Source: a virus. Taken from it: a stretch of DNA of 64,000 bases. Shown here one piece after another: positions 10,609-63,585 of this stretch. The stretch lies in IMG/VR virus record IMGVR_UViG_3300021141_000001; one strand, written 5' to 3'. The position numbers were made by a program, and so were the translations under genes. How positions within the stretch are numbered: position 1 is the first letter of the stretch; the number at the start of each line of letters is the position of its first letter. The notes below the pieces were generated by a model. That model had not been told where the DNA came from. It saw only the letters and a program-made list of their open reading frames with translations, and searched no databases.

Positions 10609-11217
10609 ATGAGACATGAAAAACAAAACATATTCTTTATAAGTGACTTACACGTTGGTCATAAAAACGTCCTCAAGTTTGATGGACGACCTTTTGCTGA
10701 TGTTGATGAGATGCATGTAGAATTAATAAAAAACTGGAACTCAGTAGTAGGTCCAGAAGATACAGTTTATTTCTTAGGTGATTTATCATTTTCTCGTGAT
10801 GAATTGACAAAGTGGTTTATTTATTCACTACAAGGTAAGATTCACTTTATTTTGGGTAACCACGATAAAATGAGTCATATTCAGAAGTTTGGTAGATGGG
10901 AAAGTGTACACGAATCTTATACTGAGATTGGTATTTTAGATCCAGAGTCTCTTGAATCAAGAGGTTCACAAGGTTATCAAAAGATAATCTTATCACACTA
11001 TCCAATTTTAAGTTGGAACAAAGCACATCACGGTTCTTGGCACTTACACGGTCACTGTCACGGTTCATTGATTAAAAGTCAACAAGAGTATTACAAAAGA
11101 AAAGTAATGGATGTTGGTTGTAACGTGATTGATTATACACCTATCTCCTATGAAAAAGTTAAAGGTATAATGGTTAAAAAAAATATATCTGCCGTAGACC
11201 ATCATGGAGAAGATTAA
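10609..11217 (+). CDS. Calcineurin-like metallophosphoesterase
   Basis: SDLHVGH, LGD, GNHD, HYP, HGHCH motifs. Confidence 0.9.
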   Translation: MRHEKQNIFFISDLHVGHKNVLKFDGRPFADVDEMHVELIKNWNSVVGPEDTVYFLGDLSFSRDELTKWFIYSLQGKIHFILGNHDKMSHIQKFGRWESVHESYTEIGILDPESLESRGSQGYQKIILSHYPILSWNKAHHGSWHLHGHCHGSLIKSQQEYYKRKVMDVGCNVIDYTPISYEKVKGIMVKKNISAVDHHGED

Positions 11218-11392
11218 GATGAAAGAATTGGAAACTAAATTAGCTCATTACAAGATGATTGTTAACTCTAATTATGGTGAAAACTCAAGACTAGTAACAG
11301 ATGTTTACTCTGAAGTTTTTAAGTTGAGAGATAAGATTCGTACTGTAAAAATTAGAAAAAGTAAAATAAAAAACTTATTCAATGGAAGATAG
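11204..11392 (+). CDS. Small RxxK-tagged protein carrying a family-B DNA polymerase motif-B-like peptide
   Basis: YKMIVNSNYG (KxxxNSxYG) followed by IRKSKIKNLF. Confidence 0.6.
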   Translation: MEKIKMKELETKLAHYKMIVNSNYGENSRLVTDVYSEVFKLRDKIRTVKIRKSKIKNLFNGR

Positions 11393-11711
11393 ATGGGATT
11401 GTATGAAAGTTGTTTGTATTAAAGAATACAAAACTATTAAAGTTGGTAGTCATTACTCTATCAAAGGTAGAGGTGATTTATCATGTAATGCTGATCCAGA
11501 AGTTGAAGAAAGAAAAGGATATGGTTTCTGTATTGAAGATGATATTTATGGATCCTACTCTGGTAGAAAAGATTGGTGGAATTTATCACATAATGAAAGA
11601 ATTAAATGGTATTATTTTACTGAACAAGAAATGTCAGAATACTTTATCACAGAAGATGAAGATTATAAAGCTTATCGTAGAAACGAAATAATAAAACAAG
11701 TATTAAACTAA
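11382..11711 (+). CDS. Hypothetical protein with C-terminal RxxK-type tag
   Basis: Ends RRNEIIKQVLN. Confidence 0.6.
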   Translation: MEDRWDCMKVVCIKEYKTIKVGSHYSIKGRGDLSCNADPEVEERKGYGFCIEDDIYGSYSGRKDWWNLSHNERIKWYYFTEQEMSEYFITEDEDYKAYRRNEIIKQVLN

Positions 11712-11713
11712 AT

Positions 11714-12583
11714 ATGAAAGACGTAAAAGGATTTTGTAAATTGATGGATATAAGTGTGCCGGATTACGCACATTTTGATTATTATATTAATCAATTCTCA
11801 AAATTAGAAAGATGGAAAAACATCAAAGACTTAATTAAACTTTATGAAGAAGCCGAAGAAAAGTATGGTGAACTTTATGAATATAGATTAAAGAAGTCAA
11901 ATGAAATTATTGATTACTTGAAGAAAACAAGAGCTTACAATGAACTTCAAGATGATAATTTATTGCCTGACCTACCGACAACTAAGAATTTTGAATATTC
12001 AGAAGATAAGAAATATATCTCAATTGATATTAATAAAGCCAATTGGGTAGTTCTTAAAAATTATGACCCTGAATTTGCGCCTGAACTTGGTGATTCTTAT
12101 GATGATTTTATTGCTAAGTTTGATGTTCCTGAAATATTCAATCACTCAAAACAATTGAGACAATATATTTTTGGTAATATCAATCCAAAAAGACAAGGTA
12201 AAGCTCAAAGAGTTATAACTGAAAGATTATTAAATAGATATAAGCATCTAAATTTAGAAATTGCTTGTGTTAAAAACGATGAGGTTATTTATTCTTTTGA
12301 TAGTTTTGACCAAATTAACGAAATACTGACTACTGTTGATAAAAGTTTATTTAAAACTAAACTTTTCACTGTAAAAAGAATAGAAGATTTCCGAATCAAT
12401 ACATATTTATCTGAGACTGGTAAAGGGCTATACAAAGAAATGGTAGGGTGTAATGGTAATCTATTTTTCTTATATCTAAAGAAATATGTTTTGAATGAAA
12501 CACTTGACATAAGAGATTTATATTTCAAAATGGATGGTAATCTTGCTATCTGGAATGTTGAAGGATTAAAAGTAAGTTTATAA
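11714..12583 (+). CDS. Hypothetical protein
   Basis: 289-aa ORF in operon; no recognised motif. Confidence 0.6.
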   Translation: MKDVKGFCKLMDISVPDYAHFDYYINQFSKLERWKNIKDLIKLYEEAEEKYGELYEYRLKKSNEIIDYLKKTRAYNELQDDNLLPDLPTTKNFEYSEDKKYISIDINKANWVVLKNYDPEFAPELGDSYDDFIAKFDVPEIFNHSKQLRQYIFGNINPKRQGKAQRVITERLLNRYKHLNLEIACVKNDEVIYSFDSFDQINEILTTVDKSLFKTKLFTVKRIEDFRINTYLSETGKGLYKEMVGCNGNLFFLYLKKYVLNETLDIRDLYFKMDGNLAIWNVEGLKVSL

Positions 12584-12586
12584 TCT

Positions 12587-12853
12587 ATGTCACAGAGCAG
12601 TACATCCGTTAACATTTACTATGGAAAAGACAAAAAATTAATGGAGTCTTTCCCTATTGAAATTGGAAGAAAAATATCGTCAATAGATGATGCTAGATTT
12701 TTGATAATAAATCATTTAGATAGTTTTTACGTTGATGTTAAATATAAGATTAATGTCTTTTCTACATTTGATGGTGAAACAACTATCAATTTGTTTTTTG
12801 AAGAAGATATTTCTTTGAACAGAGAGCTTTTATTAAGAAAAATATTAGAATAA
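12587..12853 (+). CDS. Hypothetical protein with C-terminal RxxK-type tag variant
   Basis: Ends NRELLLRKILE. Confidence 0.55.
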   Translation: MSQSSTSVNIYYGKDKKLMESFPIEIGRKISSIDDARFLIINHLDSFYVDVKYKINVFSTFDGETTINLFFEEDISLNRELLLRKILE

Positions 12854-13473
12854 TGATAGATATATTTGATAAAAAACCCATTGATTTGACAAAAGTAGTT
12901 TGTCACTCTGGTGGCGCACCTGGTGCTGATACTGTTTGGGAAAACGATGGTGATCCATATGGTGTCCAAACTAGAGCTTACTCTTATAAAACACCTAAGC
13001 ACATATCACCTAACAAGGTTGAAATTTCAGATGATGATTACAAAGAAGGTGTAGTGGAAGTTAACAAGGCTAATAAGTGGCTTAATCGTTACGGAATTCA
13101 TAAGTATATGAATCTCTTGGCTCGCAACTGGGCTCAAGTGAAATACTCTGAACAGATTTTTGCTATTGGAACTATTATTAAACCTGGTGATAAAAGCACT
13201 AGGGGTTACTACAATAAAGGTAAGTATGATATGGTTGATGGTGGTACAGGATATGCTGTGATGATGGGTATTAATAACAATAGAGAAGTTTTTGTTTTTG
13301 ATCAAATTAGAGATAAGTGGTTTAGGTGGTCTTACTCAACACTTCAATTTGTTGAAATGAAAGAAGTTCCTACTATTGATGTTCAAAACTTTGCTGGTAT
13401 TGGAACAAGAGAAATTCAACCAAATGGTGTAAAAGCCATTAAAGATGTATATGAAAAAACATTTAAAAAATAA
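12853..13473 (+). CDS. SLOG/DprA-YspA-like nucleotide-binding protein
   Basis: HSGGAPGAD, LARN and GGTGYAV motifs. Confidence 0.6.
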   Translation: MIDIFDKKPIDLTKVVCHSGGAPGADTVWENDGDPYGVQTRAYSYKTPKHISPNKVEISDDDYKEGVVEVNKANKWLNRYGIHKYMNLLARNWAQVKYSEQIFAIGTIIKPGDKSTRGYYNKGKYDMVDGGTGYAVMMGINNNREVFVFDQIRDKWFRWSYSTLQFVEMKEVPTIDVQNFAGIGTREIQPNGVKAIKDVYEKTFKK

Positions 13474-13482
13474 AAACTTAAA

Positions 13483-13950
13483 ATGAAAACTATCTTAACA
13501 AAAGAAGGAAAAATAAAACTTCAAGAAGAATTAAATTTCCTATTGACAGTTGAAAAAAATCGAGTGATAAATGAGCTATCAGAAGCTCGTGAAAGTGGTA
13601 CATTAGAAGAAAATACACAATACTTAATTGCTAAAGAAGAGTATGAGAAGGTTCAAAAGAAAATTGAAAAGCTACAATCTTTCTTAGCAAATTCAACTGT
13701 TGTTGATGTGGCTGATATTAAAACTGACAAAGTTGCCATTTTTACAACAGTAAAAGTTTTAAATACTACTAATAGTAAAGAAATGATATTTAAGATTGTT
13801 CCAGAGAATGAAATTGATATCAAAGTAAGTAAAATATCAACAAGTAGTCCAATTGGTGCTGGTTTACTTGGAAAATCTCTAAACGAGGTTTGTGAGGTTA
13901 AAACACCAGCTGGTACATTCAGTTTTAAAATTTTAGAAATAAGTATATGA
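13483..13950 (+). CDS. greA: Transcription elongation factor GreA/GreB family
   Basis: LTKEG..KL..EL, AR.SG.L.EN..Y..AK, IS..SPIGAGLLGK, TPAG; first acidic tip residue is T. Confidence 0.9.
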   Translation: MKTILTKEGKIKLQEELNFLLTVEKNRVINELSEARESGTLEENTQYLIAKEEYEKVQKKIEKLQSFLANSTVVDVADIKTDKVAIFTTVKVLNTTNSKEMIFKIVPENEIDIKVSKISTSSPIGAGLLGKSLNEVCEVKTPAGTFSFKILEISI

Positions 13951-14348
13951 GAATAAGTTTTGATTTTGATGGAACATTAGTAGACGAGTTTGGTGGTCAT
14001 CCTTCAAATAGTCAAAAAGACGAAATTCAAGGACTGGCTAAGAAATATCTTAGTGAAGGACATGAAGTAATTATTATTACTAAACGATTTGGACCTGAGA
14101 ACTCTGATAAAGGTATTAAGAATGAACACTTAGAAGTTCAACATTTGGCTAAAAAATTAGGCATTGAAAAGATTTACTTTACTAATCGTGAAATGAAGTT
14201 TTCATATATTATCAATTTAGGTGTTGATAGACATTTTGAAAATGACGACTATGAAGTTCAATTGATTAATCAAGTTTGTAAAGAAAAAGGTCATAACTGT
14301 TTGGTTGTGCCTGTAGAAGATGCTTACTGGAGAGATTTAGTTTATTAA
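13947..14348 (+). CDS. HAD-superfamily phosphatase
   Basis: ISFDFDGTL motif I, IITKR motif II, HFEND motif IV. Confidence 0.75.
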   Translation: MRISFDFDGTLVDEFGGHPSNSQKDEIQGLAKKYLSEGHEVIIITKRFGPENSDKGIKNEHLEVQHLAKKLGIEKIYFTNREMKFSYIINLGVDRHFENDDYEVQLINQVCKEKGHNCLVVPVEDAYWRDLVY

Positions 14349-14359
14349 AGAATATTATT

Positions 14360-14752
14360 ATGATACAATTACCTACTAAAATATATGTTGATAATTCACC
14401 TGTTCATGGGTTGGGTGTATTTGCTAAAGAAAAAATTAACGAAGGTGAGCTAATTGAAGAATGTACAATATTAACTTTACCTATCCAGAAAGGTGAGGAT
14501 TCTAATCTATTTATAGATTACAGATTTAACTTTCCATCTGGTTTGGAATGGGAAGAACAAGTTTTGGTAATGGGTTGTGGTGGTATTTACAATCACTCTA
14601 ACACACCAAATGCTCATTGGTATTCTAATAATGAAAAAAGAACTTTTTGCTTTGTTGCTTTAAGAGATATTGAAGTTGGTGAAGAAATATTTACCTTCTA
14701 TGGTGATGAGTCCTACTGGAATGATGGTAGAACATACATTGATGTTAAATGA
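14360..14752 (+). CDS. SET-domain methyltransferase
   Basis: SPVHGLGVFA, YNHSNTPNA, ALRDIEVGEEIFTFYG. Confidence 0.9.
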   Translation: MIQLPTKIYVDNSPVHGLGVFAKEKINEGELIEECTILTLPIQKGEDSNLFIDYRFNFPSGLEWEEQVLVMGCGGIYNHSNTPNAHWYSNNEKRTFCFVALRDIEVGEEIFTFYGDESYWNDGRTYIDVK

Positions 14753-15141
14753 CAAAAGAAGAATTCATACTATTTATTGAAGATTTAGGATTTACTCAGA
14801 CTTGGATGTCTAAATCAAATGGATATTCTTTAGCAACTGATTCCGCTGATCCAGCGTATAAAGTTATTGGTAATCCTAATCAAAATTTGATGGCTTTTGC
14901 TGACCAATTAAAAATCACATTAGATGATGAAAGAGGAATTGCTCAACTTTCATTATCACAAATGAGTACTCATATGATGGCTGGTAAGAATTTTGGAAAT
15001 TTTCAATTATCAACATTTGGTAATGATGGTGATTTTCAATTAGAGATATTTATGAGTTTTGTAAAAGGTGCTTTTAAGAAACCACCTAATAATATTATTC
15101 AATATATGAGAGATAAAAAAATTAGGGATATATTAAAATAA
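14749..15141 (+). CDS. Hypothetical protein with C-terminal RxxK tag
   Basis: Ends MRDKKIRDILK. Confidence 0.6.
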   Translation: MTKEEFILFIEDLGFTQTWMSKSNGYSLATDSADPAYKVIGNPNQNLMAFADQLKITLDDERGIAQLSLSQMSTHMMAGKNFGNFQLSTFGNDGDFQLEIFMSFVKGAFKKPPNNIIQYMRDKKIRDILK

Positions 15142-15145
15142 TTTT

Positions 15146-15162
15146 TATATTTGTAATATATA
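15146..15162 (+). promoter_or_regulatory. Tandem host-type (-7 TATATTTG) and late-type (TAATATATA) promoter elements
   Basis: TATATTTG 15146-15153 abutting TAATATATA 15154-15162. Confidence 0.55.
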
Positions 15163-15167
15163 GATTA

Positions 15168-16132: not shown

Positions 16133-16176
16133 ACAAATCTTGTCTTTTTGGTATAAATAAAAAATAAACTTTATTT

Positions 16177-16608
16177 ATGCCTTTACCGTTTTTTACTAAT
16201 CCAAATAATAGTCCACTATCATCAGCTCTTAATAGTAATATTCCTATTGCTATGAATTATCAACTTGAAGAAAAGATTGAGTTGGATTTGAATAATCCTA
16301 TATTTGTGGCTTATGTTAATACAAGTAATCTAACAAGACAAGCCGCAGAAGAACATCTTTATAGAACTAAAAAAATATTTGATGTTTATAAAAATATCAC
16401 TATTTGGGTAATTGCTTCGAATGAAACTAAAATAGAGTGTGTTTATGATGGTCAATGTAGAACTCGTGATATAGAAATAAGTGACTTAATAAAGGAGATA
16501 AATACAAGGATAGATATAATGGCTAACTCACATTCTTTTGATGATTTCAAAATTAACATCAGAGATTGGAGATTAAGCGAAATAATAAATGGCACTGAGG
16601 AAAAATAA
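16177..16608 (+). CDS. RxxK-tagged protein with a T4-type portal-like peptide
   Basis: IFVAYVNTSNLTRQAAEEHL; ends IRDWRLSEIING. Confidence 0.55.
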   Translation: MPLPFFTNPNNSPLSSALNSNIPIAMNYQLEEKIELDLNNPIFVAYVNTSNLTRQAAEEHLYRTKKIFDVYKNITIWVIASNETKIECVYDGQCRTRDIEISDLIKEINTRIDIMANSHSFDDFKINIRDWRLSEIINGTEEK

Positions 16609-16978: not shown

Positions 16979-16996
16979 TATAACAAATTAAAAAAT

Positions 16997-17137: not shown

Positions 17138-17143
17138 AAATAA

Positions 17144-17214
17144 GGTCGGGTGACCGAGTGTTTAGGTGAAGGTTCGCAAAACCTTTTACGGTGGTTAAAA
17201 TCCATCCCCGACCT
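17144..17214 (+). tRNA. tRNA-Cys(GCA), atypical; CCA not encoded
   Basis: Acceptor GGTCGGG/CCCGACC, anticodon stem AAGGT/ACCTT with loop TCGCAAA, T stem GGTGG/CCATC, discriminator U73. Confidence 0.85.
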
Positions 17215-17234
17215 CTAAAAATTAAAAATGTATA

Positions 17235-45222: not shown

Positions 45223-45240
45223 TAATTTAATATATAACAT

Positions 45241-46961: not shown

Positions 46962-47273
46962 ATGAAATACTTAAAGAAATATAACGAAAATCAAGAACAA
47001 CAAGATCCTGAGTTTGCTATTGCTAAAATTAAGGGAAGATATCCTGAGGATATGGTTCAAGATATGTTAAATGATGAGATTAATCAGTGGAAGCCAGATG
47101 AAGAAGATCCAGAATTCTATTCAAGAACTGGAAACGGAGAAGCAGAAGATGTTATCATCAATCAAATGATTGGTTGGTTTGATAAAAAGTATTATGCTTT
47201 ATCTGATGAAAACTTTGAGAAAGTTAAACAATTAATACTAAAAGAGTATGAGTTCTTAAACTTTAACTACTAA
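46962..47273 (+). CDS. Small acidic putative internal head protein
   Basis: N-terminus MKYLKKYNE; TAATATATA 46949-46957. Confidence 0.6.
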   Translation: MKYLKKYNENQEQQDPEFAIAKIKGRYPEDMVQDMLNDEINQWKPDEEDPEFYSRTGNGEAEDVIINQMIGWFDKKYYALSDENFEKVKQLILKEYEFLNFNY

Positions 47274-47318: not shown

Positions 47319-47651
47319 ATGAAAACACCAAATTTATTTCCCGTAGCTATGAAAATTGCTGCTCAAACTATTGGACAAGATTTAGTCAGTGTTCAACCAA
47401 TGGCTGGACCAGGTGGAATGACTAAAGAAGAAAGAGAAAGAATTGAAGCCGAGATTAAACAAAAGAATCGTGATGGTAAAATCGATTCATTAATTGAAGG
47501 ATCAGAATATAAAGAAGAAAAATTAGAAGAACATCCTGATTATAAACCAGGTAGTGGTTGTCAATTATTTTATATGGATTATACTTACAATTCTCCAACT
47601 CACAAAAAAACAAGAAGAAGTAAAAAGAAAAAGAAAGATGGGAGTATTTAA
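47319..47651 (+). CDS. Small protein containing a gp23-type major capsid protein fragment interrupted by an RxxK-tag helix
   Basis: LFPVAMKIAAQTIGQDLVSVQPMAGPGG ... NRDGKIDSLI ... GCQLFYMDYTY. Confidence 0.7.
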   Translation: MKTPNLFPVAMKIAAQTIGQDLVSVQPMAGPGGMTKEERERIEAEIKQKNRDGKIDSLIEGSEYKEEKLEEHPDYKPGSGCQLFYMDYTYNSPTHKKTRRSKKKKKDGSI

Positions 47652-47823
47652 GAGTCCAGGAGTTTTTGTTAAAGAAGTAGATATATCTATTGTTAGACCA
47701 ACTTTTTCCAAAAGATATTCAAGAAGAATAAAAATAGGTAAAATATTTGATATAGATGTTCCTAATATTATTATAACTTCTACTCCAAAAGGAGGACCCT
47801 CAAACTTTCCACAAATCTGGTGA
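47638..47823 (+). CDS. 61-aa mosaic protein: tail-sheath N-terminal peptide, RxxK tag, terminase coupling-motif peptide
   Basis: ATG at 47638; MGVFKSPGVFVKEVDIS / SRRIKIGKIF / IIITSTPKGGPSNFPQIW. Confidence 0.65.
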   Translation: MGVFKSPGVFVKEVDISIVRPTFSKRYSRRIKIGKIFDIDVPNIIITSTPKGGPSNFPQIW

Positions 47824-47853: not shown

Positions 47854-48189
47854 ATGATAAATGTTTATTTGATATGTGCCGAATTTGAAGGAAGAAGATT
47901 GTATAAGATTGGTTATACAAGAAGAGATGTCTCTAAAAGAATTAAAGAGTTGAAGACTGGTAACGGTTCTGAAATGTATGTTATAGATTCTTTTAAGTCA
48001 AAATGGGGAACTAAAATTGAATCACAGTTACACAGAACATTTAAAAGTAAAAAGATAAATGGTGAGTGGTTTGATTTAACTGATGAAGAAGTAAAATCAT
48101 TTATGGAAAAATGTAAATCTTCACATGATGTGATGGAACTAATTACCACCAACAATACTTACTACTTAGAAACTGGTAAACTATATTAA
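47854..48189 (+). CDS. GIY-YIG (T5orf172/MUG113-like) nuclease-domain protein
   Basis: VYLI...YKIGYT....KRIKEL.TGN...E..LH..F......GEWF. Confidence 0.85.
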   Translation: MINVYLICAEFEGRRLYKIGYTRRDVSKRIKELKTGNGSEMYVIDSFKSKWGTKIESQLHRTFKSKKINGEWFDLTDEEVKSFMEKCKSSHDVMELITTNNTYYLETGKLY

Positions 48190-48901: not shown

Positions 48902-50650
48902 ATGCTTATTAGTGAATTAGGAATTAGAGGATTCAAAAGTTATGGTAATAACGAACAAGTCTTAAAATTAAATACGGAAAAAGGAGAATTGATTCTTCTT
49001 GTTGGAAATAACGGAGCAGGTAAATCATCTTTGTTAGATTCCTTCGATTACACACTTTATGGTAAAGTTAGAGGTCGTAAAAAGAAATGGGCCACTTTAT
49101 CCACACTCCCAAACAGAATTAACGGTGAACTACTTAATAGAATTAAATTTAATTCTTTAGGTACTGACGTTGAAATAAAACGAGGTATATCACCTGGTGT
49201 GTTAGAACTTACAGAAAACGGTGTTGTCAATGAAAGAGCCGGTAAAGGTAATGTTGATGAAAAGATTGAAAAGTATATCGGTATGGATATTGAAACTTTC
49301 AAATCATTTATCTCAATGTCTATTAATGATTTCAAAAACTTTATCTCTTTATCAAATGAAGAAAAACAACTTCTTTTAGATAAGTTGTTCAACTTAGAAG
49401 TTATCAATATCTTAAATGGTATCTTAAAAGATATCGCTAAGAATAATAAAGTCAGAGCCGCTTCTTTTGATGGTGAAATTAGAACTTTAGATGACTCAAT
49501 TTCATCTATTCAAAAGTCTATTGATAAAGCTATTGAAAGGCAAAAAGAAGAAGCTAGACTAGCTTTAGAAAGAGAGAAAGAAGATATTCAAGCCGAGATT
49601 GATAGAATCACAGGTGAGATGAATTCTAGAAAAGATGATTATAAATCTTTGAAAGAAAAGATGGATAAAATCAAAGAAAAGGATTCAGAATTATCTGATG
49701 AGATGGACAAAGAAAAAAGACAACTTATCAATTGTCAAAATGATATTAAGAATGTTCAAAGAGAATTAGACTTATATGATTCTGGTAAATGTCCTACTTG
49801 TAAAACAGATTTTGATTCGGTTCACTTTGCTAATTTAAGAACGGCTTTAGAAGAAAAGAAATTAGGTTTTGAAAATATCAAATCTGAAATTGAAGCTAAT
49901 GTTACTAAGATAAGAGAAAGACAAGTTAAGTTAAAAGGTTTATCTGAAACAACTACAACAACTTTTAATGATTTAAGTTATCTATTGAAAAACTATAAAT
50001 CAGAGATTGATAAATTAGTTCAAAAGAAAGCTTCTCAAACTGTTCCGGTTAATACTACTCCTTCTATTAATATTCAAGAGTTTCAAAATACAATTGAAGA
50101 ACTTGAAGAAAAGAAAGTAGTTAGTTCTGATAACATCACAGTTTGTAAAGAGAAAGACCTTTATTATAAAGAGTTGAATCGTATCTTTGGTGAAGATGGT
50201 GTTAAGAAGTCTATAATCTCTGGCATTATTAAACCAATCAATCACTTTATTGCTGAGAATATTAAAAAGATGAGTTTGCCATTTGAAGTAAGATTAGATG
50301 AAACTTTTACAGCTGAGATTAAACAATTAGGTTCTCAAATTGAACACGATTCTTTATCAACTGGTGAAACTAAAAAAGTTAATATTAGTATCTTAATTGC
50401 TTACTTGAAGTTAATTAGAACTAAGCGTCATATCAATATACTCTTCTTGGATGAGGTCTTCTCTTCTATTGATATCGAAGGTATAGATTCTATTTTGGCT
50501 CTCTTAAAATCGTTCGCAAACGATTATAACATCAATATCTTTGTTGTCCATCATGCTATTTTGAACCAAGAGATGTTTGATAGAATACTGAAGATTAATA
50601 AAGAAGTGTTTTCTTCGATAGAAGAGGTTGATCTGAGTTATGGAAGTTGA
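48902..50650 (+). CDS. gp46/SbcC/Rad50-like recombination ATPase
   Basis: FKSYGN, Walker A GNNGAGKS, zinc hook CPTC, signature LSTGE, Walker B LFLDE, coiled coils. Confidence 0.92.
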   Translation: MLISELGIRGFKSYGNNEQVLKLNTEKGELILLVGNNGAGKSSLLDSFDYTLYGKVRGRKKKWATLSTLPNRINGELLNRIKFNSLGTDVEIKRGISPGVLELTENGVVNERAGKGNVDEKIEKYIGMDIETFKSFISMSINDFKNFISLSNEEKQLLLDKLFNLEVINILNGILKDIAKNNKVRAASFDGEIRTLDDSISSIQKSIDKAIERQKEEARLALEREKEDIQAEIDRITGEMNSRKDDYKSLKEKMDKIKEKDSELSDEMDKEKRQLINCQNDIKNVQRELDLYDSGKCPTCKTDFDSVHFANLRTALEEKKLGFENIKSEIEANVTKIRERQVKLKGLSETTTTTFNDLSYLLKNYKSEIDKLVQKKASQTVPVNTTPSINIQEFQNTIEELEEKKVVSSDNITVCKEKDLYYKELNRIFGEDGVKKSIISGIIKPINHFIAENIKKMSLPFEVRLDETFTAEIKQLGSQIEHDSLSTGETKKVNISILIAYLKLIRTKRHINILFLDEVFSSIDIEGIDSILALLKSFANDYNINIFVVHHAILNQEMFDRILKINKEVFSSIEEVDLSYGS

Positions 50651-50930
50651 TAATTTGTTAGAATTATATCTTAACGCTAAGAAAGATAAGAAAGAAGCTA
50701 TTAGTCTTCAAAAATATGAGAAAGCGGCTATGGCTAGAGATACAGAACGCAAACATTCAGTTGATTTGTATGAGTTATTGAGTGGTGATAAAGTTGAAGC
50801 TTTTGATTATAATAAATTTGATAAACTTATTGATGATTACTGTATGAGTAAGTATGAAGTAAGTATTTATGATACACACTCATTAAAACAAATTATTAGA
50901 CAGAAAAGACTAAAAGATTTAGGAATATAA
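50640..50930 (+). CDS. UVR-domain (ClpC M-domain-like) small protein with C-terminal RxxK tag
   Basis: KKEAISLQKYEKAAMARDTE; ends IRQKRLKDLGI. Confidence 0.65.
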   Translation: MEVDNLLELYLNAKKDKKEAISLQKYEKAAMARDTERKHSVDLYELLSGDKVEAFDYNKFDKLIDDYCMSKYEVSIYDTHSLKQIIRQKRLKDLGI

Positions 50931-52585: not shown

Positions 52586-52777
52586 ATGTTGATCGTAGAG
52601 GTTGAAGGAAAACTAACAATTGAAAAAGCTCTTAAAATTCTTAAAAGAAAATGGGACAAAACTAAAGCTATGAAAGAGCTTAGAGGAAGAAAAGAATTTA
52701 CTAAAAAGTCTGTAAAAAGAAGAGCTGAAGTAACAAGAGCCGCTTATATTCAGAAGAAATACAGAAGTAATGATTAA
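52586..52777 (+). CDS. rpsU: Ribosomal protein bS21
   Basis: MLIV.V.....IEKALK.LKRK......KELR.RKEFTK.SVKRR. Confidence 0.88.
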   Translation: MLIVEVEGKLTIEKALKILKRKWDKTKAMKELRGRKEFTKKSVKRRAEVTRAAYIQKKYRSND

Positions 52778-53069
52778 GAAGTTACTTAGTTTATTTCCCA
52801 ATCAAAATAATAAAACTTATGATTTAGGAAAATTACAAAAGTCTGGATTTATATCATCTTTACCTGATATGTCTGGTTGTCCTAATTGTAAAAGTAAAAA
52901 TATATCTTGGAAGTTCTTTATACCAACAGATGGTTCTAAACCAACTATTCCATCACAAAGTGTTTGTAATGATTGTGGATATAAAGATGAAAAAGGTCAG
53001 TTTGAAATGACAAATAAATCGTTACTTAGAGAGAAAAAAATTAATCAAATATTAGATGAGTTTCAATAA
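52770..53069 (+). CDS. Zinc-ribbon protein with C-terminal RxxK tag
   Basis: CPNC...CNDC; LREKKINQIL. Confidence 0.6.
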   Translation: MIKKLLSLFPNQNNKTYDLGKLQKSGFISSLPDMSGCPNCKSKNISWKFFIPTDGSKPTIPSQSVCNDCGYKDEKGQFEMTNKSLLREKKINQILDEFQ

Positions 53070-53271
53070 AAGATTTATCAGTAAAAATAGTTTATTATCA
53101 GCCGCTTCTAATGGCTTAGATTACTTAATAGGTTATGTAACAAAACCAGATGCTCTTATTATAGAGTCGGATGGTATATCTCACCAAGTTTGTGATATTG
53201 TTGGCTTAACAAAAGATAAACAAGAGATGAAACAAAAATTAAAAGAAATAGGATTCTATGAATTTGAATAA
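53056..53271 (+). CDS. Hypothetical protein
   Basis: 71-aa ORF overlapping both neighbours. Confidence 0.5.
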   Translation: MSFNKRFISKNSLLSAASNGLDYLIGYVTKPDALIIESDGISHQVCDIVGLTKDKQEMKQKLKEIGFYEFE

Positions 53272-53965
53272 AAACTATTACTCAATTCTTGGAGTTGATA
53301 ATAACTCTGATGAAAAGGTAATAAAAAAAACTTATTATAAATTATCATTTACGCATCACCCTGATAAAGGCGGTAATCCTATTATCTTTGGTGAAATGAC
53401 TGAGGCATATGATGTTCTTTGTAGTGAACAAAGAAAAGATTATGATGTTAAAAGTAAATTTGGTAATAATTATAATGAGTATTTTGAGCTATTTGATATT
53501 AATTTAGAATTTGATTATAATAAAGAAAAATCAAATTATGAAAAATTCAAAAAGAATGAAGTTTTAGATATCTATATGAATATAGATGAAACATTTAATG
53601 GTACGTTAGAATATGAAAGATGGGTTAAGTGTAAAACTTGTGATGGTACAGGTAAAGACCTTTCAGCTAAAATTGTTATTAAAGACAATGATGGTAATAT
53701 TTTAAGAACATTTGATGCTGATGATGGATGCGATTTCTGTGAAGGATCTGGTAAAGACTACAAAGGAGATGCTTGTAACTTTTGTAATGGTAAAGGTAAA
53801 GTAGGTTTAACACCTTGTAAAAAGTGTAATGGTGAAAAACGAATTTTAGGAAAACAAAAACTATCAGGTATTAAATTAACCGGTGATGAAACTAAAATTG
53901 AATCAATGGGTAATTGCTCTAAAGATGTTGCTGGAATGGTTGGTTATCTTTTATTAAAAAAATAA
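53258..53965 (+). CDS. DnaJ-like co-chaperone (J domain plus four CxxCxGxG), shortened C-terminus
   Basis: NYYSILGV...IKK.Y.KL...HHPDK; four zinc-finger repeats. Confidence 0.85.
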   Translation: MNLNKNYYSILGVDNNSDEKVIKKTYYKLSFTHHPDKGGNPIIFGEMTEAYDVLCSEQRKDYDVKSKFGNNYNEYFELFDINLEFDYNKEKSNYEKFKKNEVLDIYMNIDETFNGTLEYERWVKCKTCDGTGKDLSAKIVIKDNDGNILRTFDADDGCDFCEGSGKDYKGDACNFCNGKGKVGLTPCKKCNGEKRILGKQKLSGIKLTGDETKIESMGNCSKDVAGMVGYLLLKK

Positions 53966-57269: not shown

Positions 57270-57318
57270 TTTTTATTTTATTTTATTTTTATATATTTAT
57301 TTTAATCATTTATGTATA

Positions 57319-60300
57319 TTATGGTGTAAGAACAATCCCGACCTTGCCAGCAACAGCAAATGGATCAGTTACACTTGAATACCAACCGTTTGTTGATATT
57401 GTAGATGCTGTTGCTGACACAATAGTTCTTTCTTGGTCGGTATTTTGTAAAAATATATTCCATATGTGACAAGAAGATGTTCCGCTCCAAGACATACCTC
57501 TGTTTAATATTTGTAAAGTATAATCATCTGTCACATAACCATTAAATTCAAATGATGAACCATACCAGTTACCATTTCTCCAAAGACCATTTTCCCAGAA
57601 AACATTAAAAGCATTCATATATTGAGATGTTCCATTTTCCCATATCATACCAGTAGCTGTTCCTATAATAAAGTTTCCATTTTTCCAGTGTGAGATATAA
57701 AAATCACTTCCATCTAAATCACCATTTTCCCAATAACAAGTATTATCATTAAAATTAAAAGATGCTGTTGCTGATCCATTTCTTTTTACATAAGGATTGA
57801 ATGAACTATTTTTAAATTTACCTCTCTCAAATACTCCGTTTAACCAAACAGAACTACTCATCTCGCCGCTAGAATGACTAAAAGTTCCGGATACCCAAAG
57901 ACCATTTTTAAATTTAGCACTTCTAGGTGGTTTATTTACACCTTCTAAACTCATAGCCATTACTTGTTTTGTGAAAAACTTTTGGTCTTTAACAAATTTA
58001 TCTTTAATATTTGTAAAAATACCATCTCTCCATTTACCCCAATATGATTGACTATAAGAATCAACAAATATATTAGCGTTTCCACTTGTTAATCCTGAAA
58101 CTGGATTTCCACCACTTCCTTGAAACTCACCATATAAAAATACACCATTATTCCATACTCTACCTTTAAATACACCACCATTAAATTCACCTGTGTACCA
58201 AGTTGAATTCGTTAAACCATTAGCATTTCCAAATTCACCACCATTAAATGTTCCTTTTTCCCAACCATAATCTAATTGTGATGTACTTTCACTTTGTGTC
58301 CAGCCATAAGCTGATGTAAACTTACCACCATTAAATGTTCCGTTTTTCCATTTACCATTAGTTATGAATTGACCACCATTAAATATACCTTTTTGCCATG
58401 TTGCTGAGTGTGTAGCGTTTTGTAATATATCAGAGCCAAAAACACCATTAACAAAAATACCATTTAACCAGTTTAAGTTTTGATTTAAATTTTGATAATA
58501 ACTTGTATCAATAGAATATAATGTAGCATTTTCAACAATAGCATAACTCACAGTACCATTATATAAATGTGTATCTAAAGTAGAAACTTGATTACTACCG
58601 ATAATACCTTTGTTAAAGACACCATCATACCATTTTGAGTAGTTAAAATTACCATTAGAGAATGTACCAGACTCCCAATCACTCTTATAAAAATCACCAT
58701 CAATGAAATTACCACTTTGCCAAGAGTTTCTATTATTTGGCAAAGTTCCTTTTCTATAATAGGAATTTATATTTTCAGAATAATAATAAGGACTCACAAC
58801 ACTTGATGTTCCATTAAATGTTCTTGAGTTATAAAACCAACCATTTAAGAAATCTCCTTCAATCCATCTTGAGTCTCTGACAACACCATTACTAAATGTA
58901 CCACCATTCCATATTGAGTTTTGTATAATTCCTGAATTCCATACATCATCACCTTGAACAAAGAATGAGTTAATATATGTAGCATTTGATAAAATATTTG
59001 AGTTGTTAGAAAATATAGCGTCGGAAATAACTAAATTTCTAGCTTTTGCTAAATTTGTAAGATCTTTATCTAAATAGTTATATTCTAAATTTTGAATTAA
59101 TGAACCAGATAAATAAGTTCTTCTCATTAATCCTGATTTAATATTTGATTTACTTATTTTAAGTTTTTTTAAATGACCATATCTATTCTCCGCCTTATTA
59201 GTGTAGTAATAACCATTTGATGCTGATAAACTAATTATTTGACTAGCAGTTCCAATTTCTCGTAGTTTATAAACACCATTTGTATTTGAAATAACTTTAT
59301 AAGCATCAGGAATTCTAGAAACAGTTCCCCAGTTAAAATCCACAGAGTCTAAAAATACAACATCTCCAACATTTATTAATTTAGATTCGGGGTAATTAGA
59401 ATCATAAGATGTAGTTGCTGTAATATAATTTGAAGAATCAATTGATAAGTTATAATTTTCACCTAATAATGTTTGTACAGTTATATTATTATCATTATTT
59501 GATTCAATATGAGAGCCACTATTCCAATCAGAGTTTTCAATTAAACCACTATCAAAATCAGCATCTACTATATAAGCACTTGATACATCTATAATATTAT
59601 TTAATGGAGTAAGACTTGAAGAGTTATAGTTAAAATCTAAATTTTCTGTTGTTAAAGATCCTGTTTTATCATATCTACTTGACCATATATCAATAGAATA
59701 ATATTTACTATTAGGATTTGTACCAGCAATCTCGGTATAATATTTTGGTCCAGTGTATGGAGGAAATATAGCAGTAGATGTGTAATACTTATAAGAGTTA
59801 TCAGCAGGTGTTGATAAGAAAGCAGAATATTCATATCCTTTTTTACCAACTGTTGTTACTCCAAAGTTTTCTTCTGTGTATTCTGTCCAAGAACCTATCT
59901 TGAATTTTTTATCAAAAAAGTTTATAATATCTTTAGATAGATTATTAATACCTAAACCTTTAATATAAAATTTATCACCTGTTCTTAATCTATCATATCC
60001 ACTTTTATCAATATAAAACTTATAAACTTTCTGAACAACGTCATTAATAGAACTGAATGTAACAGAAGTTATAGCAGAAAACTCAGATGCTGCTAATTCA
60101 TCATAGGCATATATTTTAATAATATTATCACTATTATAAAATGAATCTTTCAATACTGAATTATTAAAATATGAGTTTATAGATTTACTTTTTTCAAACT
60201 TTGAATTATTTGCCTTTGTGTTTTTTAATTCAGAATTTTCTAAATATGAATTATTGAACTCACAATCATTAAAAAATGCTTGTTTAATTTCATTTGTATA

Positions 60301-61629
60301 AGGTGATTCAATTCCTAATATCTCATCTTCGACTATTGAATAAGTAGCACTTGATTGAGTACCAAATGTAGTTGTATAAAATGAACCATTTGTTATAGTT
60401 GATGTTTCTATTATAGAGTTAGCAACAAAATTATAACCTCTACCTGCGTTATTAGGTGAGTTAATTTTTTGATAAGGCAATCCATAATTATCAAATGAAG
60501 AAAAATAACTTTCACTTGAAGTGTATAATGAATTCATTGTTCCTTTTTTCCAAATAGTATTAATTAAGGTTCCAACATTCCAAACTGACTTATCACCATG
60601 CCATTTAATTCTTTTATCATATTGACCATATAGACCACAGTTCCATTCACCTCTGAAGTTACCATCTCTAAAGTTATTTTTAGTTAAATATGGTTTAAAG
60701 TAAGTAACATCAACTTCCCAAGAAGATTGTGTTGGACCAACTACCCATTTATAAACATATCCTTCTTTGAATTCTCTTCCATTATAAGTGAAATCAGCAT
60801 TCATTATTTTTACTCTATTTACATTTGAATATGTAGGAGAAAGAGCATATGAATAAGAACCACTATTAATAAAGTTTGTTGTTATATTAGTCCAACTAGC
60901 TGTAGAACTTCTTACATAAAATCCAGGCGCACCTGAAACACCATTATTCAATCCCCAGTTTTGAGTAGTTGAATAATTACTATCAATAAATGCTATATTA
61001 TTTTGATACCATTCAAATTTATGATTTATTTTACCTTCTCTTGTAGTAATCGCTCTATTGGCATGTAAAAATTCAGACGTATCTCTAATGTAATAAACTT
61101 TTATTAATTGGTCATCTGTAGCTGTTGAATATGGTGTAACTCCTGTATAGTCTATATCTAAAACAACTTGGCATTTATCTATGTGTAGAATTTTATAACC
61201 GTCTCTACCTTTTTTATATTTATTTTTTTCAATTAATAAATCACTATCATAAGCACCATTTATTATAAATACTCTATCTCCAGCTTTTAATTCAGAATTA
61301 ACTTCAGTATAAAAAAGAGTTTTTATAGAACCTTTTATTTCATATGGCTCTACCCAATTTAATAACTTAGAACTAAATGTTTTATTTGAATTTGAAACAA
61401 GACCTATTAGTGGATCATATCCAACTAGTTTTATATCCTTTCCTAAGTTTTGTAACTCAGCTCTTGTTATAAGTTGAGGTTTTGTTGATATCGTATTAGC
61501 AACCGCCGAAATACTTGCGTTTGTTAAATTTGGCACACTACTAACCGGTTCTTTGTATTGAACCTCCATAATACTAGGAATCTTAAAGATTTTTTTTCTA
61601 ATATTTATATCAACTGAAAATGTCGCCAT
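57319..61629 (-). CDS. Large putative virion structural protein with extensive W/F-x-x-G pentapeptide repeats
   Basis: Repeated W..G.F.GG units over the C-terminal third; late-type promoter upstream. Confidence 0.65.
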   Translation of the reverse strand: MATFSVDINIRKKIFKIPSIMEVQYKEPVSSVPNLTNASISAVANTISTKPQLITRAELQNLGKDIKLVGYDPLIGLVSNSNKTFSSKLLNWVEPYEIKGSIKTLFYTEVNSELKAGDRVFIINGAYDSDLLIEKNKYKKGRDGYKILHIDKCQVVLDIDYTGVTPYSTATDDQLIKVYYIRDTSEFLHANRAITTREGKINHKFEWYQNNIAFIDSNYSTTQNWGLNNGVSGAPGFYVRSSTASWTNITTNFINSGSYSYALSPTYSNVNRVKIMNADFTYNGREFKEGYVYKWVVGPTQSSWEVDVTYFKPYLTKNNFRDGNFRGEWNCGLYGQYDKRIKWHGDKSVWNVGTLINTIWKKGTMNSLYTSSESYFSSFDNYGLPYQKINSPNNAGRGYNFVANSIIETSTITNGSFYTTTFGTQSSATYSIVEDEILGIESPYTNEIKQAFFNDCEFNNSYLENSELKNTKANNSKFEKSKSINSYFNNSVLKDSFYNSDNIIKIYAYDELAASEFSAITSVTFSSINDVVQKVYKFYIDKSGYDRLRTGDKFYIKGLGINNLSKDIINFFDKKFKIGSWTEYTEENFGVTTVGKKGYEYSAFLSTPADNSYKYYTSTAIFPPYTGPKYYTEIAGTNPNSKYYSIDIWSSRYDKTGSLTTENLDFNYNSSSLTPLNNIIDVSSAYIVDADFDSGLIENSDWNSGSHIESNNDNNITVQTLLGENYNLSIDSSNYITATTSYDSNYPESKLINVGDVVFLDSVDFNWGTVSRIPDAYKVISNTNGVYKLREIGTASQIISLSASNGYYYTNKAENRYGHLKKLKISKSNIKSGLMRRTYLSGSLIQNLEYNYLDKDLTNLAKARNLVISDAIFSNNSNILSNATYINSFFVQGDDVWNSGIIQNSIWNGGTFSNGVVRDSRWIEGDFLNGWFYNSRTFNGTSSVVSPYYYSENINSYYRKGTLPNNRNSWQSGNFIDGDFYKSDWESGTFSNGNFNYSKWYDGVFNKGIIGSNQVSTLDTHLYNGTVSYAIVENATLYSIDTSYYQNLNQNLNWLNGIFVNGVFGSDILQNATHSATWQKGIFNGGQFITNGKWKNGTFNGGKFTSAYGWTQSESTSQLDYGWEKGTFNGGEFGNANGLTNSTWYTGEFNGGVFKGRVWNNGVFLYGEFQGSGGNPVSGLTSGNANIFVDSYSQSYWGKWRDGIFTNIKDKFVKDQKFFTKQVMAMSLEGVNKPPRSAKFKNGLWVSGTFSHSSGEMSSSVWLNGVFERGKFKNSSFNPYVKRNGSATASFNFNDNTCYWENGDLDGSDFYISHWKNGNFIIGTATGMIWENGTSQYMNAFNVFWENGLWRNGNWYGSSFEFNGYVTDDYTLQILNRGMSWSGTSSCHIWNIFLQNTDQERTIVSATASTISTNGWYSSVTDPFAVAGKVGIVLTP

Positions 61630-61675
61630 CTATTACCAAAAGGATTTTATGTATATATTATTTATTAAGACTTTC

Positions 61676-61706
61676 TTTGTAATTAAACTTTATTTAATTA
61701 ACTTTG
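61676..61706 (+). promoter_or_regulatory. Bacteroidota-type primary sigma promoter
   Basis: TTTG 61676-61679, 19-nt spacer, TAACTTTG 61699-61706. Confidence 0.7.
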
Positions 61707-61715
61707 TAAAATAGT

Positions 61716-62450
61716 ATGAATAAGAAAAAAGTATTGATTTTTACTGGAGCAGGAGTTTCAGCTGAAAGTGGCGTTGCTACTTTTAGAACTGGTGATGATG
61801 GGCTTTGGTATAATCATAAAGTAGAAGATGTTGCCACACCTAGTGGGTGGCGTAGAGATAGAGAAAAAGTTCTTAATTTCTACAATATGCGTCGTGCTCA
61901 AATGAAAGATGTTGAGCCAAATTTGGCGCATAAAATAATTGCTGAATTAGAAAATGATTATGATGTTACTGTTGTAACTCAAAATGTTGATGATTTACAC
62001 GAAAGAGCAGGCTCAACTAATATTATTCATCTACATGGTGAGTTAACAAAAGCTAGAGGCTGTATGTATGATCATAAAACATCACCATTAGACACAGTTG
62101 TTGATGTGGGATATAATCCAATTAATATTGGAGATAAATGTCCAACAACTGGCTCTCAATTAAGACCTCATATTGTTTGGTTTGGTGAAGATTTAGATCC
62201 TGATTTTGTTGATATGGCTACTAAAGCGGCTAAAGAATGTGATGTATGTATTGTTGTTGGAACTTCAATGAAAGTTTCACCTGCTAATACAATTCCATTT
62301 TTGACTAGAGAAACTACTAAGATTTACTATGTAGATTTATCAGACCTTGATTTCTATGTACCAGAATACAGAAATGACTTATTTACTCATTACCAAGAAT
62401 TGGCATCAACTGGTATGGAAAAAGTTAAAAACGATTTAAAAAATATTTAA
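61716..62450 (+). CDS. cobB: Sir2-family NAD-dependent deacylase
   Basis: TGAGVSAESG..TFR, PN.AH, TQNVDDLHERAG, LHG, RPHIVWFGE, VGTS..V.PA. Confidence 0.92.
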   Translation: MNKKKVLIFTGAGVSAESGVATFRTGDDGLWYNHKVEDVATPSGWRRDREKVLNFYNMRRAQMKDVEPNLAHKIIAELENDYDVTVVTQNVDDLHERAGSTNIIHLHGELTKARGCMYDHKTSPLDTVVDVGYNPINIGDKCPTTGSQLRPHIVWFGEDLDPDFVDMATKAAKECDVCIVVGTSMKVSPANTIPFLTRETTKIYYVDLSDLDFYVPEYRNDLFTHYQELASTGMEKVKNDLKNI

Positions 62451-62451
62451 T

Positions 62452-62682
62452 ATGAAAGAAGAATATTACAAAGACATATTTGGTGGTAAAAAATATGGCG
62501 ACTATATGGTTTATGGTTTAGATAAATCTAAAGAATCTACATATAGTGATTACACTGATTTACTTGACCAAATGAACGCAACATCCTTCACTGAAGAATC
62601 TGAAGAACAAAAAGCTATTCGTGAAGCAAAAGAAAAGGCTGAGAAAAGAAATAATAAGATTGACCAACTTTTAGGAGAATAA
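62452..62682 (+). CDS. Small protein with C-terminal RxxK tag
   Basis: Ends KRNNKIDQLLGE. Confidence 0.6.
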   Translation: MKEEYYKDIFGGKKYGDYMVYGLDKSKESTYSDYTDLLDQMNATSFTEESEEQKAIREAKEKAEKRNNKIDQLLGE

Positions 62683-62683
62683 T

Positions 62684-63247
62684 ATGTCACAAATATCAAT
62701 TGTTGATTGGATTACGGCTTTATTAATAGTCGTGCCTTTATTTGCTTTACTTATATCAATTCCAAGTTTTATCTCTATGTATAAACTTGGATTCAAAGCT
62801 TATGTAGAACAATTGATACTTTTGAAAACAATGTTGAAAAAGATATCATCTGGATATAAAATTACTCAAAATCAAGTTTATAATTACAGCGGTGTTAGTT
62901 ATAATGGACCAAAATCAGTAACACAAGTTGAAACTAATCATTTCTTTCCAATAGTTATTAATAAAGATAATCTCTTAGTTCTTAATAAGAAAGAAGGTCC
63001 ATTTAATACTTTACATATTCAGTATTGTAAACATGAAAATGATAACTGGGATAATAATATGGTTGAGATAAAAACCAGCAATTGTTTATTTACTCAAATT
63101 CTAAATGACAGATTTCAAAAAAAAGTTGATAATCTTATGAAAGAGTCTGTTCAACTTGATGGAGTTGAAAATCTAAATGAACTATTAAATAGTGAAATAA
63201 CTTCTATTAAAAGAGAAGATAAACTTAATGCTTTATTAAATGATTAA
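62684..63247 (+). CDS. Membrane-anchored protein with C-terminal RxxK tag
   Basis: N-terminal TM helix; ends KREDKLNALLND. Confidence 0.6.
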   Translation: MSQISIVDWITALLIVVPLFALLISIPSFISMYKLGFKAYVEQLILLKTMLKKISSGYKITQNQVYNYSGVSYNGPKSVTQVETNHFFPIVINKDNLLVLNKKEGPFNTLHIQYCKHENDNWDNNMVEIKTSNCLFTQILNDRFQKKVDNLMKESVQLDGVENLNELLNSEITSIKREDKLNALLND

Positions 63248-63404
63248 AAGAGACATTGTAATAGTTGACCATATCAGTATGATAAGTGCTACTACGGTAG
63301 ACCCATCCATATTGGAAAAACTTAATATTCGTGTTAAGAATATTCGTAAGTATAGAGGTCGTATTGAAAAACGAAAAGAAAAAATAAAAAGAATTTATGA
63401 ATAA
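63240..63404 (+). CDS. 54-aa RxxK-tagged protein with SF4-helicase Walker-B-like peptide; not in ORF track
   Basis: MIKRDIVIVDHISMISATTVDPSILEKLNIRVKNIRKYRGRIEKRKEKIKRIYE; overlaps both neighbours by 8 nt. Confidence 0.6.
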   Translation: MIKRDIVIVDHISMISATTVDPSILEKLNIRVKNIRKYRGRIEKRKEKIKRIYE

Positions 63405-63585
63405 AGAAACTCTTGATATATTTGGTCAATATCTAAATGGTAATAAACAAATTATGATGTTGAAGGCTAGGCAAACTGGTAAGTCAAGTGCCACCGCTTC
63501 TTTAATGGCTTGGAAACATCTTCATAGTAAATATGAAAGAGCAAGAACGAGAAAAGAAACCATAAAACGGCTTTTTAATATATAA
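63397..63585 (+). CDS. 62-aa RxxK-tagged protein with terminase-large-subunit Walker-A-like peptide
   Basis: IMMLKARQTGKSS; ends TRKETIKRLFNI. Confidence 0.65.
   Translation: MNKETLDIFGQYLNGNKQIMMLKARQTGKSSATASLMAWKHLHSKYERARTRKETIKRLFNI

Follow-up and report, generated by a model that had tools for sequence, protein, structure and literature searches.

A candidate C-terminal docking tag and predicted mimic micro-proteins in a huge lake-water phage and its relatives

The 64,000-nucleotide stretch of DNA analyzed here (the window), from the IMG/VR virus record IMGVR_UViG_3300021141_000001, encodes seven small open reading frames (ORFs) of 54 to 143 aa, each of which an original prediction had described as a signature fragment of an essential phage protein joined to a common helical tag. 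All seven ORFs are present. We found that the tag is a shared short linear motif at protein C-termini, which holds a fixed position on unrelated proteins, occurs beyond what composition provides, and is selected at the level of the peptide. It is also proteome-wide, a point that the original prediction understated. Taking these findings together with the conservation of some of the small proteins, we propose a system of two layers, namely, a clade-wide C-terminal docking or addressing motif and a small class of conserved mimic micro-proteins, a reading to which we would give an even chance of being correct. Literature searches yielded no account of this tag and no description of capsid-fragment or other core-fragment micro-proteins in phages.

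Sequence similarity places the window in a huge lake-water phage (>600 kb) whose relatives are the uncultured phage genomes LR756502, LR745206, and LR756504, each of 635 to 642 kb and sharing 70 to 72% nucleotide identity with the window. These three relatives, labeled W01, W02, and W03, were used as stand-ins for the rest of the window's genome. They were published with the definition of the "Mahaphage" clade, whose genomes of >634 kb all had Bacteroidetes as the predicted host (PMC7162821). The G+C content of the window is 26 to 33%. At least 18 DNA runs of lake water, drawn from many studies, contain the window region (each with at least 87% of the sampled words), and this abundance in lake-water metagenomes makes the biology of the phage ecologically relevant.

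The strict form of the tag, R-x-x-K-[IL]-x-x-[IL]-[LF], was searched alongside a relaxed pattern. Five window proteins have the strict form among their last 15 residues, never more than 6 residues from the C-terminus, versus one match in 19,240 internal positions. The C-terminal and internal counts in the relatives are 56 versus 15 (W01), 64 versus 17 (W02), and 24 versus 4 (W03), which in W01 amounts to a per-position enrichment of about a hundred-fold at the C-terminus. As controls in the window, W01, and W02, the reversed motif gave 1, 0, and 0 matches, the N-terminal 15 residues gave none, and composition-matched shuffled tails gave 0.02 to 0.37 matches where 5, 56, and 64 were observed. 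The relaxed pattern is found on 126 of the 962 W01 ORFs, i.e., on about 13% of the proteins. A logo of 240 tags yields the consensus hydrophobic-R-[D/E/N or K]-x-K-[I/L]-x-x-[I/L]-[L/F, or G-I], followed by 0 to 2 residues and the end of the protein. Its +1 position is D, E, or N in 87% of the cases, and positions -1, -3, -4, and +5, which the search pattern leaves free, are likewise biased; the variant ending in G-I is also represented. Half of these tags stop one residue short of the C-terminus, which is the modal spacing, and tails of 0 to 6 residues are tolerated.

At the tag positions, codon use matches that of the genome at large apart from a mild excess of A-ending codons, and the tag is absent, in all frames, from noncoding upstream regions; hence, selection acts on the peptide. 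On the same two grounds, we rejected as a main cause the possibility that the tag is a by-product of the A-rich start region of the next gene. A search with the T4 gp45 clamp family returned zero matches, its controls included, and is uninformative.

Most carriers are unrelated proteins of 50 to 200 aa. Once the tag is trimmed off, 109 of 115 carriers show no detectable relationship to any other member of the set, and the tag is kept by orthologues with an overall identity of only 28 to 56%. It is present on 24 to 27% of the proteins of 80 to 120 aa and on 1% of those above 400 aa. The carriers, which include a riboflavin kinase, are concentrated in dense arrays of small genes near the genome ends. 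The idea that the tag is particular to the fragment-bearing ORFs is thus not borne out, since it marks about 13% of the proteome; the accompanying idea of a docking tag has held up better, as a peptide common to so many unrelated proteins looks like a docking or addressing signal.

A second terminal signal is found in the same phages. An N-terminal leader of the form M-[KR]-x-hydrophobic-[KRN]-x-[FYW] opens about 99 proteins in W01, 72 in W02, and 45 in W03, and a leader of this type is also present at 46962-47273 of the window. The tag and the leader coincide in one protein versus about 12 expected (P values of 5e-5 and 7e-4) and in 0 of the 45 in W03, a near-exclusivity that fits two separate addressing signals. 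Small leader-bearing proteins include copies of the capsid propeptide region (W01 80294-80539 and W02 93266-93520).

We next consider the seven ORFs, which are named here by their start positions. With the tag removed, each was compared by Smith-Waterman alignment, scored as z against shuffles, to the capsid, portal, terminase, sheath, split PolB, scaffold, and ClpC-like proteins of the relatives. The prediction that all seven share the tag stands for the relaxed pattern, which fits every one; the strict pattern fits only 11204, at its C-terminus, and 47638, internally. The tag is C-terminal in 11204, 16177, 50640, 63240, and 63397 and internal, though conserved in orthologues, in 47319 and 47638. 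The proposed derivation from core proteins also divides the set, with significant alignments to the predicted parents for 47319, 47638, and 50640. Copies of the capsid N-arm, the sheath N-terminus, and the ClpC UVR motif are accordingly regarded, at the level of sequence, as secure in the window.

The strongest of these is 47319, which is 78% identical over 27 aa to the major capsid proteins of W01 and W02 (capsid residues 88-115; E value of 1e-8; z of 12.4). It matches the Pfam Gp23 profile (PF07068) at positions 5-44 of 376 with an E value of 3e-4 and 20.7 bits versus a cutoff of 24.4, whereas the true major capsid protein of the relatives covers positions 6-350 with 99.5 bits. By these alignments, 47319 is a copy of a capsid fragment, not a gp23-type capsid protein. 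Its orthologues are found in W01, W02, and W03, and the W03 version has both an internal and a C-terminal tag. The adjacent 47638 aligns to the sheaths of W01 and W02 with a z of 5.3, its N-terminal 19 aa corresponding to sheath residues 5-23 in both; its orthologue was found in W01 only. At 61 aa versus sheaths of 1283 to 1295 aa, and with no Pfam match, it is not itself a sheath protein. The "terminase coupling motif" previously assigned to 47638 is unsupported, as the whole protein aligns to the sheath N-terminus around the inserted tag, and the stretch in question is simply the next sheath segment. Finally, 50640 aligns with a z of 4.5 to the relatives' ClpC-like ATPase at its UVR region. 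Against the Pfam UVR profile (PF02151), it scores 15.3 bits versus a cutoff of 21.5 (E value of 0.017); its W02 orthologue, which keeps the tag, matches with an E value of 9e-5.

Most of the seven ORFs overlap an adjoining gene by 8 to 20 nt. In the region 47600-47640, 47638 begins, in the +1 frame, before the A-rich end of 47319 is complete. A one-base deletion at 47617 in one low-depth RNA-library contig would make a single protein of the two, though it may reflect slippage or misassembly. The possibility that the small ORFs are 5' exons of interrupted genes, or are extended by readthrough of a recoded stop, was dropped because the in-frame downstream ORFs are unrelated genes, namely, the T5orf172 gene, an HD-domain protein, and an SbcC-like ATPase.

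The relatives possess further micro-proteins of this kind, among which are copies of C-terminal strands of the capsid protein. Capsid residues 421-451 and 513-546 are copied in W01 and residues 494-539 in W02; others copy the spine-helix region of the capsid protein, a scaffold segment, and portal residues 277-335, and one copies PolB motif A with 10 of 11 residues identical. Some of these copies, of capsid, scaffold, portal, and PolB segments, are tagged. In W01, 5 of the 13 fragment-like small proteins have the capsid protein as their parent, although the large proteins number 153, and a capsid N-arm micro-protein is present in all four phages. The features of a microProtein-type mimic (homology to a segment of a larger protein of the same genome, together with purifying selection) are combined in 47319, 47638 (with weak constraint), and 50640, as well as in the W01 proteins at 277261 and 501868 and the W02 proteins at 255010, 440173, 460435, and 83154. 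The family B DNA polymerase of the relatives is itself seemingly split into two genes more than 100 kb apart, with motif A in one (W01 253958-255391; W02 232803-234344) and motifs B and C in the other (W01 120483-121907; W02 130568-131992).

The conservation of these small proteins bears on their origin. The ratio of nonsynonymous to synonymous substitution rates (dN/dS) between syntenic orthologues is 0.22 to 0.38 for 47319 and 0.16 to 0.26 for 16177, with an overall range of 0.16 to 0.38 for these two and 50640, and it is 0.67, i.e., a weak constraint, for 47638; as dS is saturated, all these values are rough. The 16177 orthologues are 52 to 56% identical and keep the tag. In metagenomes, the families of 47319, 11204, and 63397 comprise 420, 58, and 171 protein clusters, respectively, and in each the hallmark residues and the tag are the best-conserved alignment columns, the Walker A motif and the tag being at least 95% conserved in the 63397 family. 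Fragments and parents are 43 to 69% identical in DNA, and identical residues often differ in codon (e.g., 3 of 16); in the absence of DNA-level similarity, the likeness is maintained at the level of the peptide. The small proteins hence appear to be old or convergent copies, alike at the protein level and under purifying selection, and not fresh recombination debris, and the earlier view that they are not decaying genes is upheld.

In favor of an origin as debris of recombination or of a homing endonuclease, copied beside a mobile T5orf172 gene and still open by luck, the capsid and sheath mimics lie immediately 5' of a T5orf172/MUG113 gene. This gene follows the sheath mimic in the window and in W02 and stands in W01 between the sheath mimic and a portal-fragment protein (it lies at 4993-5433 of L001 and 5039-5368 of L002), and its changing position among the three phages suggests that it has moved. 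The weak constraint on 47638 and the lack of W01 or W02 orthologues of 11204 and 63240 would suit such an origin as well. However, the frames are open across phages only about 70% identical in DNA, the dN/dS values and the hundreds of family members with best-conserved hallmark columns speak of selection, no residual DNA similarity to the parents is seen, and most other fragment-like micro-proteins are not beside a T5orf172-type gene. We therefore consider this alternative largely refuted and very improbable.

In the two-layer reading, the tag would most probably work once its carrier protein is complete, as a docking or addressing peptide that all carriers present to one shared partner. The foremost candidate for this partner is the phage's own ClpC-ClpP machinery, by which tagged proteins might be subject to timed turnover or delivery. 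Genes of the relatives specify a ClpC-like double AAA+ ATPase, devoid of the usual N-domain but equipped with a UVR motif and a V-G-F loop, the ClpP-docking loop, as well as ClpP homologues, two of them strong and a third weaker. Together with the DnaJ-like protein of the window, these make a phage proteostasis machine a reasonable candidate hub. In W01, the ClpC-like and ClpP genes lie at 440544-442667, 58607-59281, 112095-112763, and 364437-365003. As for the second layer, we postulate that each micro-protein has as its body an old copy, made at the protein level, of a short conserved stretch of some phage core protein and that, like eukaryotic microProteins, it most probably competes for whatever normally binds the copied segment, the tag coupling such mimics to the common partner. 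Competition for the partner of the parent segment is the simplest reading of the mimics that their sequences suggest. What they compete for could be partners of the phage itself in assembly or replication, but it could equally belong to rival phages or be host sensors.

Several parallels are offered by known systems. The capsid targeting sequence of T4 is an N-terminal leader of internal proteins, Alt, gp67, and gp68, that is cut off by the prohead protease; like the tag, it is a short terminal peptide on unrelated phage proteins that is read as an address. The tag differs in being C-terminal, in its sequence, and in its presence on about 13% of the proteins, and the T4-like N-terminal leader of the present phages marks a separate, nonoverlapping set of proteins. 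The C-terminal cargo peptides of encapsulins and the encapsulation peptides of microcompartments are short helical tags that dock unrelated cargo onto one shell protein, but their sequences are unrelated to that of the tag. The C-terminal degrons and docking tails of AAA+ proteases, such as the ssrA tag, the SspB tail for ClpX, the HslU tail for HslV, and the HbYX motif, share with the tag the fixed position relative to a free C-terminus and a hydrophobic pair followed by one variable residue; further, the phage clade has its own ClpC-like ATPase and ClpP. Yet the tag differs in sequence from all of these, and the window itself is devoid of a Clp gene. Finally, eukaryotic microProteins are small paralogues of one interaction domain that titrate the partners of the parent protein. 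The micro-proteins described here are likewise small, conserved, and copied from one segment of a larger protein of the same genome, but the copies are segments of 10 to 45 aa, not folded domains, and some reproduce catalytic motifs; no dominant-negative effect of such proteins in phages was met with in the literature searches.

A number of results weigh against the two-layer reading. The predicted hallmark is indistinguishable from chance in three of the seven ORFs and absent from a fourth. The best alignments of 11204 (to PolB motif B in the C-piece of the relatives' PolB), 63397 (to the Walker A motif of TerL), and 63240 (to Walker B of the DnaB-like helicases of W01 and W02) have z values of -0.3, 0.0, and 1.1, all within the shuffle null, and no portal similarity was found for 16177 (z of -1.9 versus the relatives' core proteins). 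For 11204 and 63240, no orthologue was found in W01 or W02 (for the latter by sequence); 63397 has a W02 orthologue and matches the PHROG large terminase with an E value of 0.004. The family hidden Markov models of 11204 and 63397 do not reach PolB or TerL and match other tagged micro-proteins through the tag region. With 54 to 62 aa and one motif-like string each, 63397, 11204, and 63240 are not terminase, PolB, or helicase enzymes, and the real TerL, split PolB, and helicase are located elsewhere in the relatives. Moreover, Walker A and B and PolB A and B are catalytic motifs rather than obvious protein-binding surfaces and fit the mimic idea poorly. The genes of the relatives are, in addition, uncurated greedy ORF calls that include some false genes.

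These nonsignificant matches raise the question of whether AT-rich composition, rich in K, I, N, and L, could by itself have generated both the tag and the hallmark strings. The shuffled tails and the reversed motif described above contradict this for the tag, as do z values of 4.5 to 12.4 for the capsid, sheath, and UVR matches; further, the string K-x-x-x-N-S-x-[YF]-G occurs three times, only in small proteins of 52 to 75 aa and in no large protein, where about one occurrence would be expected overall. Chance is thus refuted for the tag, 47319, 47638, and 50640 and may still account for 11204, 63397, and 63240; as a general account, we regard it as scarcely credible.

The linkage between the two layers also fares poorly. 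Small proteins that align locally and significantly to a large protein number 13 in W01 and 13 in W02; 3 and 2 of them, respectively, are tagged, versus base rates of 16 to 18% (Fisher P values of 0.35 and 0.70). The tag is hence no commoner among fragment-like micro-proteins than among other small proteins, and the enrichment of core-gene motifs among tagged ORFs that had been anticipated is not seen. A basic subtype of the tag, with a nonacidic +1 residue, appeared post hoc to be linked to fragments (6 of 26 versus 0 of 60 in W01 and W02 combined) but was rejected when W03 did not replicate it (2 of 25 versus 2 of 63; P value of 0.32). Nearly all W03 tags are of the nonacidic +1 type; as this is the general form of the tag there and the enrichment is gone, we treat the pairing of fragment and tag as unproven, and it may be a coincidence.

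The arrangement of tagged genes provides a further objection. Tagged small genes overlap the next gene in 47% of the cases versus 25% for untagged ones (odds ratio of 2.6; P value of 9e-10), with A-T-G-A overlaps in 24% versus 9%, and five of the nine tags in the window end at the start codon of the next gene. One possibility is that the tag functions in the nascent chain, its last 10 to 13 residues slowing termination and promoting reinitiation at the overlapping start in a host phylum that lacks Shine-Dalgarno pairing; the tight spacing to the stop codon, with its mode of one residue, would agree with this. However, about a third of the tagged genes have no close downstream gene (an opposite-strand gene follows in 17% and a gap of >15 nt in 20%), a terminator-like hairpin follows 50640, conserved internal tags are found in 47319 and 47638, and tails of 0 to 6 residues are tolerated. 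The comparison of overlaps is also confounded by the clustering of tags in dense small-gene arrays and by the false ORF calls. A translational role for the tag on its neighbor gene may still apply, given the overlap difference, but this explanation as a whole appears improbable to us.

The interpretation originally advanced for the seven ORFs was that they are immune decoys or baits that show core peptides to host sensors or to the assembly of rival phages, with the tag handing the target to a hub such as a protease. The mimic-plus-tag architecture seen for the capsid, sheath, scaffold, portal, and PolB motif A segments is in line with this, as are the choice of the most conserved parts of the parents for copying, the position of the 47319 segment at the start of the Gp23 profile, and the ClpC-like and ClpP proteins of the relatives. 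Lit, for its part, responds to a short capsid peptide, and the Gol region of T4 gp23, 29 residues in its first quarter, has been called the most conserved part of that protein (PMC3014915). A direct alignment of 47319 to T4 gp23 was, however, not obtained, and searches of solved structures with 47319, 47638, and the relatives' major capsid protein gave no usable match and so no residue mapping to gp23 or Gol. Avs-type sensors are reported to recognize folded cores across extended interfaces and not short peptides (PMC13581612), interfaces that pieces of 10 to 45 aa cannot offer, which argues against short-peptide decoys for this class. The presence of the tag on about 13% of the proteins, metabolic enzymes included, and the lack of tag enrichment among the fragment-like micro-proteins likewise count against this interpretation. 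We accordingly treat the decoy interpretation as a hypothesis with modest odds, unlikely as matters stand. In its most developed form, a bait-and-tag library would display conserved capsid, sheath, portal, scaffold, polymerase, and terminase peptides, and the tag would lead to ClpC-ClpP or another hub at which their binders, be they host pattern sensors or competitor-phage proteins, are captured and removed; this, too, we rate as a long shot.

Huge phages possess hundreds of small genes of unknown function, and a ten-residue tag on about one in eight proteins provides a direct experimental handle on them; its partner, once named, would give the fate of more than 100 proteins per genome. Were this partner to be the phage's own Clp protease, it would constitute a degron or adaptor system, encoded by a virus, of a size for which there is no earlier description. 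The core-copying micro-proteins, in turn, could reveal new control of assembly, competition with related phages, or evasion of host sensing.

The positions of the seven ORFs and of other features are collected in Table 1, which includes four tagged proteins absent from the original prediction. Beyond these, window genes could be assigned to families as an ankyrin-repeat protein, a RecA-like ATPase, NUDIX proteins, a ligase-like protein, and an SbcC-like ATPase, along with the GreA/GreB homologue, DnaJ-like protein, Sir2 protein, and T5orf172/MUG113 gene listed in the table.

Table 1. Features of the window, with positions in nucleotides
Feature	Position	Strand	Remarks
62-aa micro-protein, PolB-motif-B-like nonapeptide	11204..11392	+	C-terminal tag R-K-S-K-I-K-N-L-F + 3 residues
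143-aa protein	16177..16608	+	Relaxed C-terminal tag R-D-W-R-L-S-E-I-I + 6 residues
110-aa predicted mimic of major capsid protein N-arm and first E-loop strand	47319..47651	+	Charged insert
Internal tag in insert of 47319, R-D-G-K-I-D-S-L-I	47469..47495	+	Kept in W01 and W02 orthologues and across family
61-aa predicted mimic of tail-sheath residues 4-47	47638..47823	+	Broken by internal tag R-R-I-K-I-G-K-I-F (nt 47722-47748)
96-aa protein, UVR motif	50640..50930	+	C-terminal tag of L-G-I variant; hairpin and T-run 3'
54-aa micro-protein, helicase Walker-B-like stretch	63240..63404	+	C-terminal tag R-K-E-K-I-K-R-I-Y + 1 residue
62-aa micro-protein, terminase-like Walker A	63397..63585	+	C-terminal tag R-K-E-T-I-K-R-L-F + 2 residues
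Additional tagged protein, 130 aa	14749..15141	+	Strict tag; W02 orthologue 28% identical, tag kept
Additional tagged protein, 99 aa, zinc-ribbon-like	52770..53069	+	Strict tag
Additional tagged protein, 76 aa	62452..62682	+	Strict tag; W02 positional orthologue keeps tag
Additional tagged protein, 187 aa	62684..63247	+	Strict tag; W02 orthologue 40% identical, tag kept
GreA/GreB homologue	13483-13950		
tRNA-Cys gene	17144-17215		
T5orf172/MUG113 (GIY-YIG-like) gene	47854..48189	+	Beside capsid and sheath mimics; Pfam E value of 3e-21
DnaJ-like co-chaperone	53258-53965		
Sir2-family protein	61716-62450		Immediately 5' of run of four tagged genes

Contigs from four metatranscriptomic runs span most of the 44- to 54-kb part of the window but are uninformative on transcription or strand, and capsid-gene transcripts cross-map to 47330-47368 in the RNA libraries; these libraries hence neither show nor exclude expression of the micro-proteins.

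W01 encodes a 1670-aa protein (514378-519390) with 13 SprB repeats, a PKD domain, and a CHU_C type IX secretion signal, and, separately, a 116-aa protein (597508-597858) that is a copy of the C-terminal signal domain of the former. Judging from their domains, these proteins are consistent with a Bacteroidota host.

The sequence T-A-A-T-A-T-A-T-A is present in 21 copies in the window versus 6 expected (e.g., at 45228, 46949, 47840, 35800, and 63576). With most copies lying 5 to 30 nt 5' of a start codon, the element resembles a signal for promoters or start regions; at 63576, it coincides with the final codons and stop codon of 63397.

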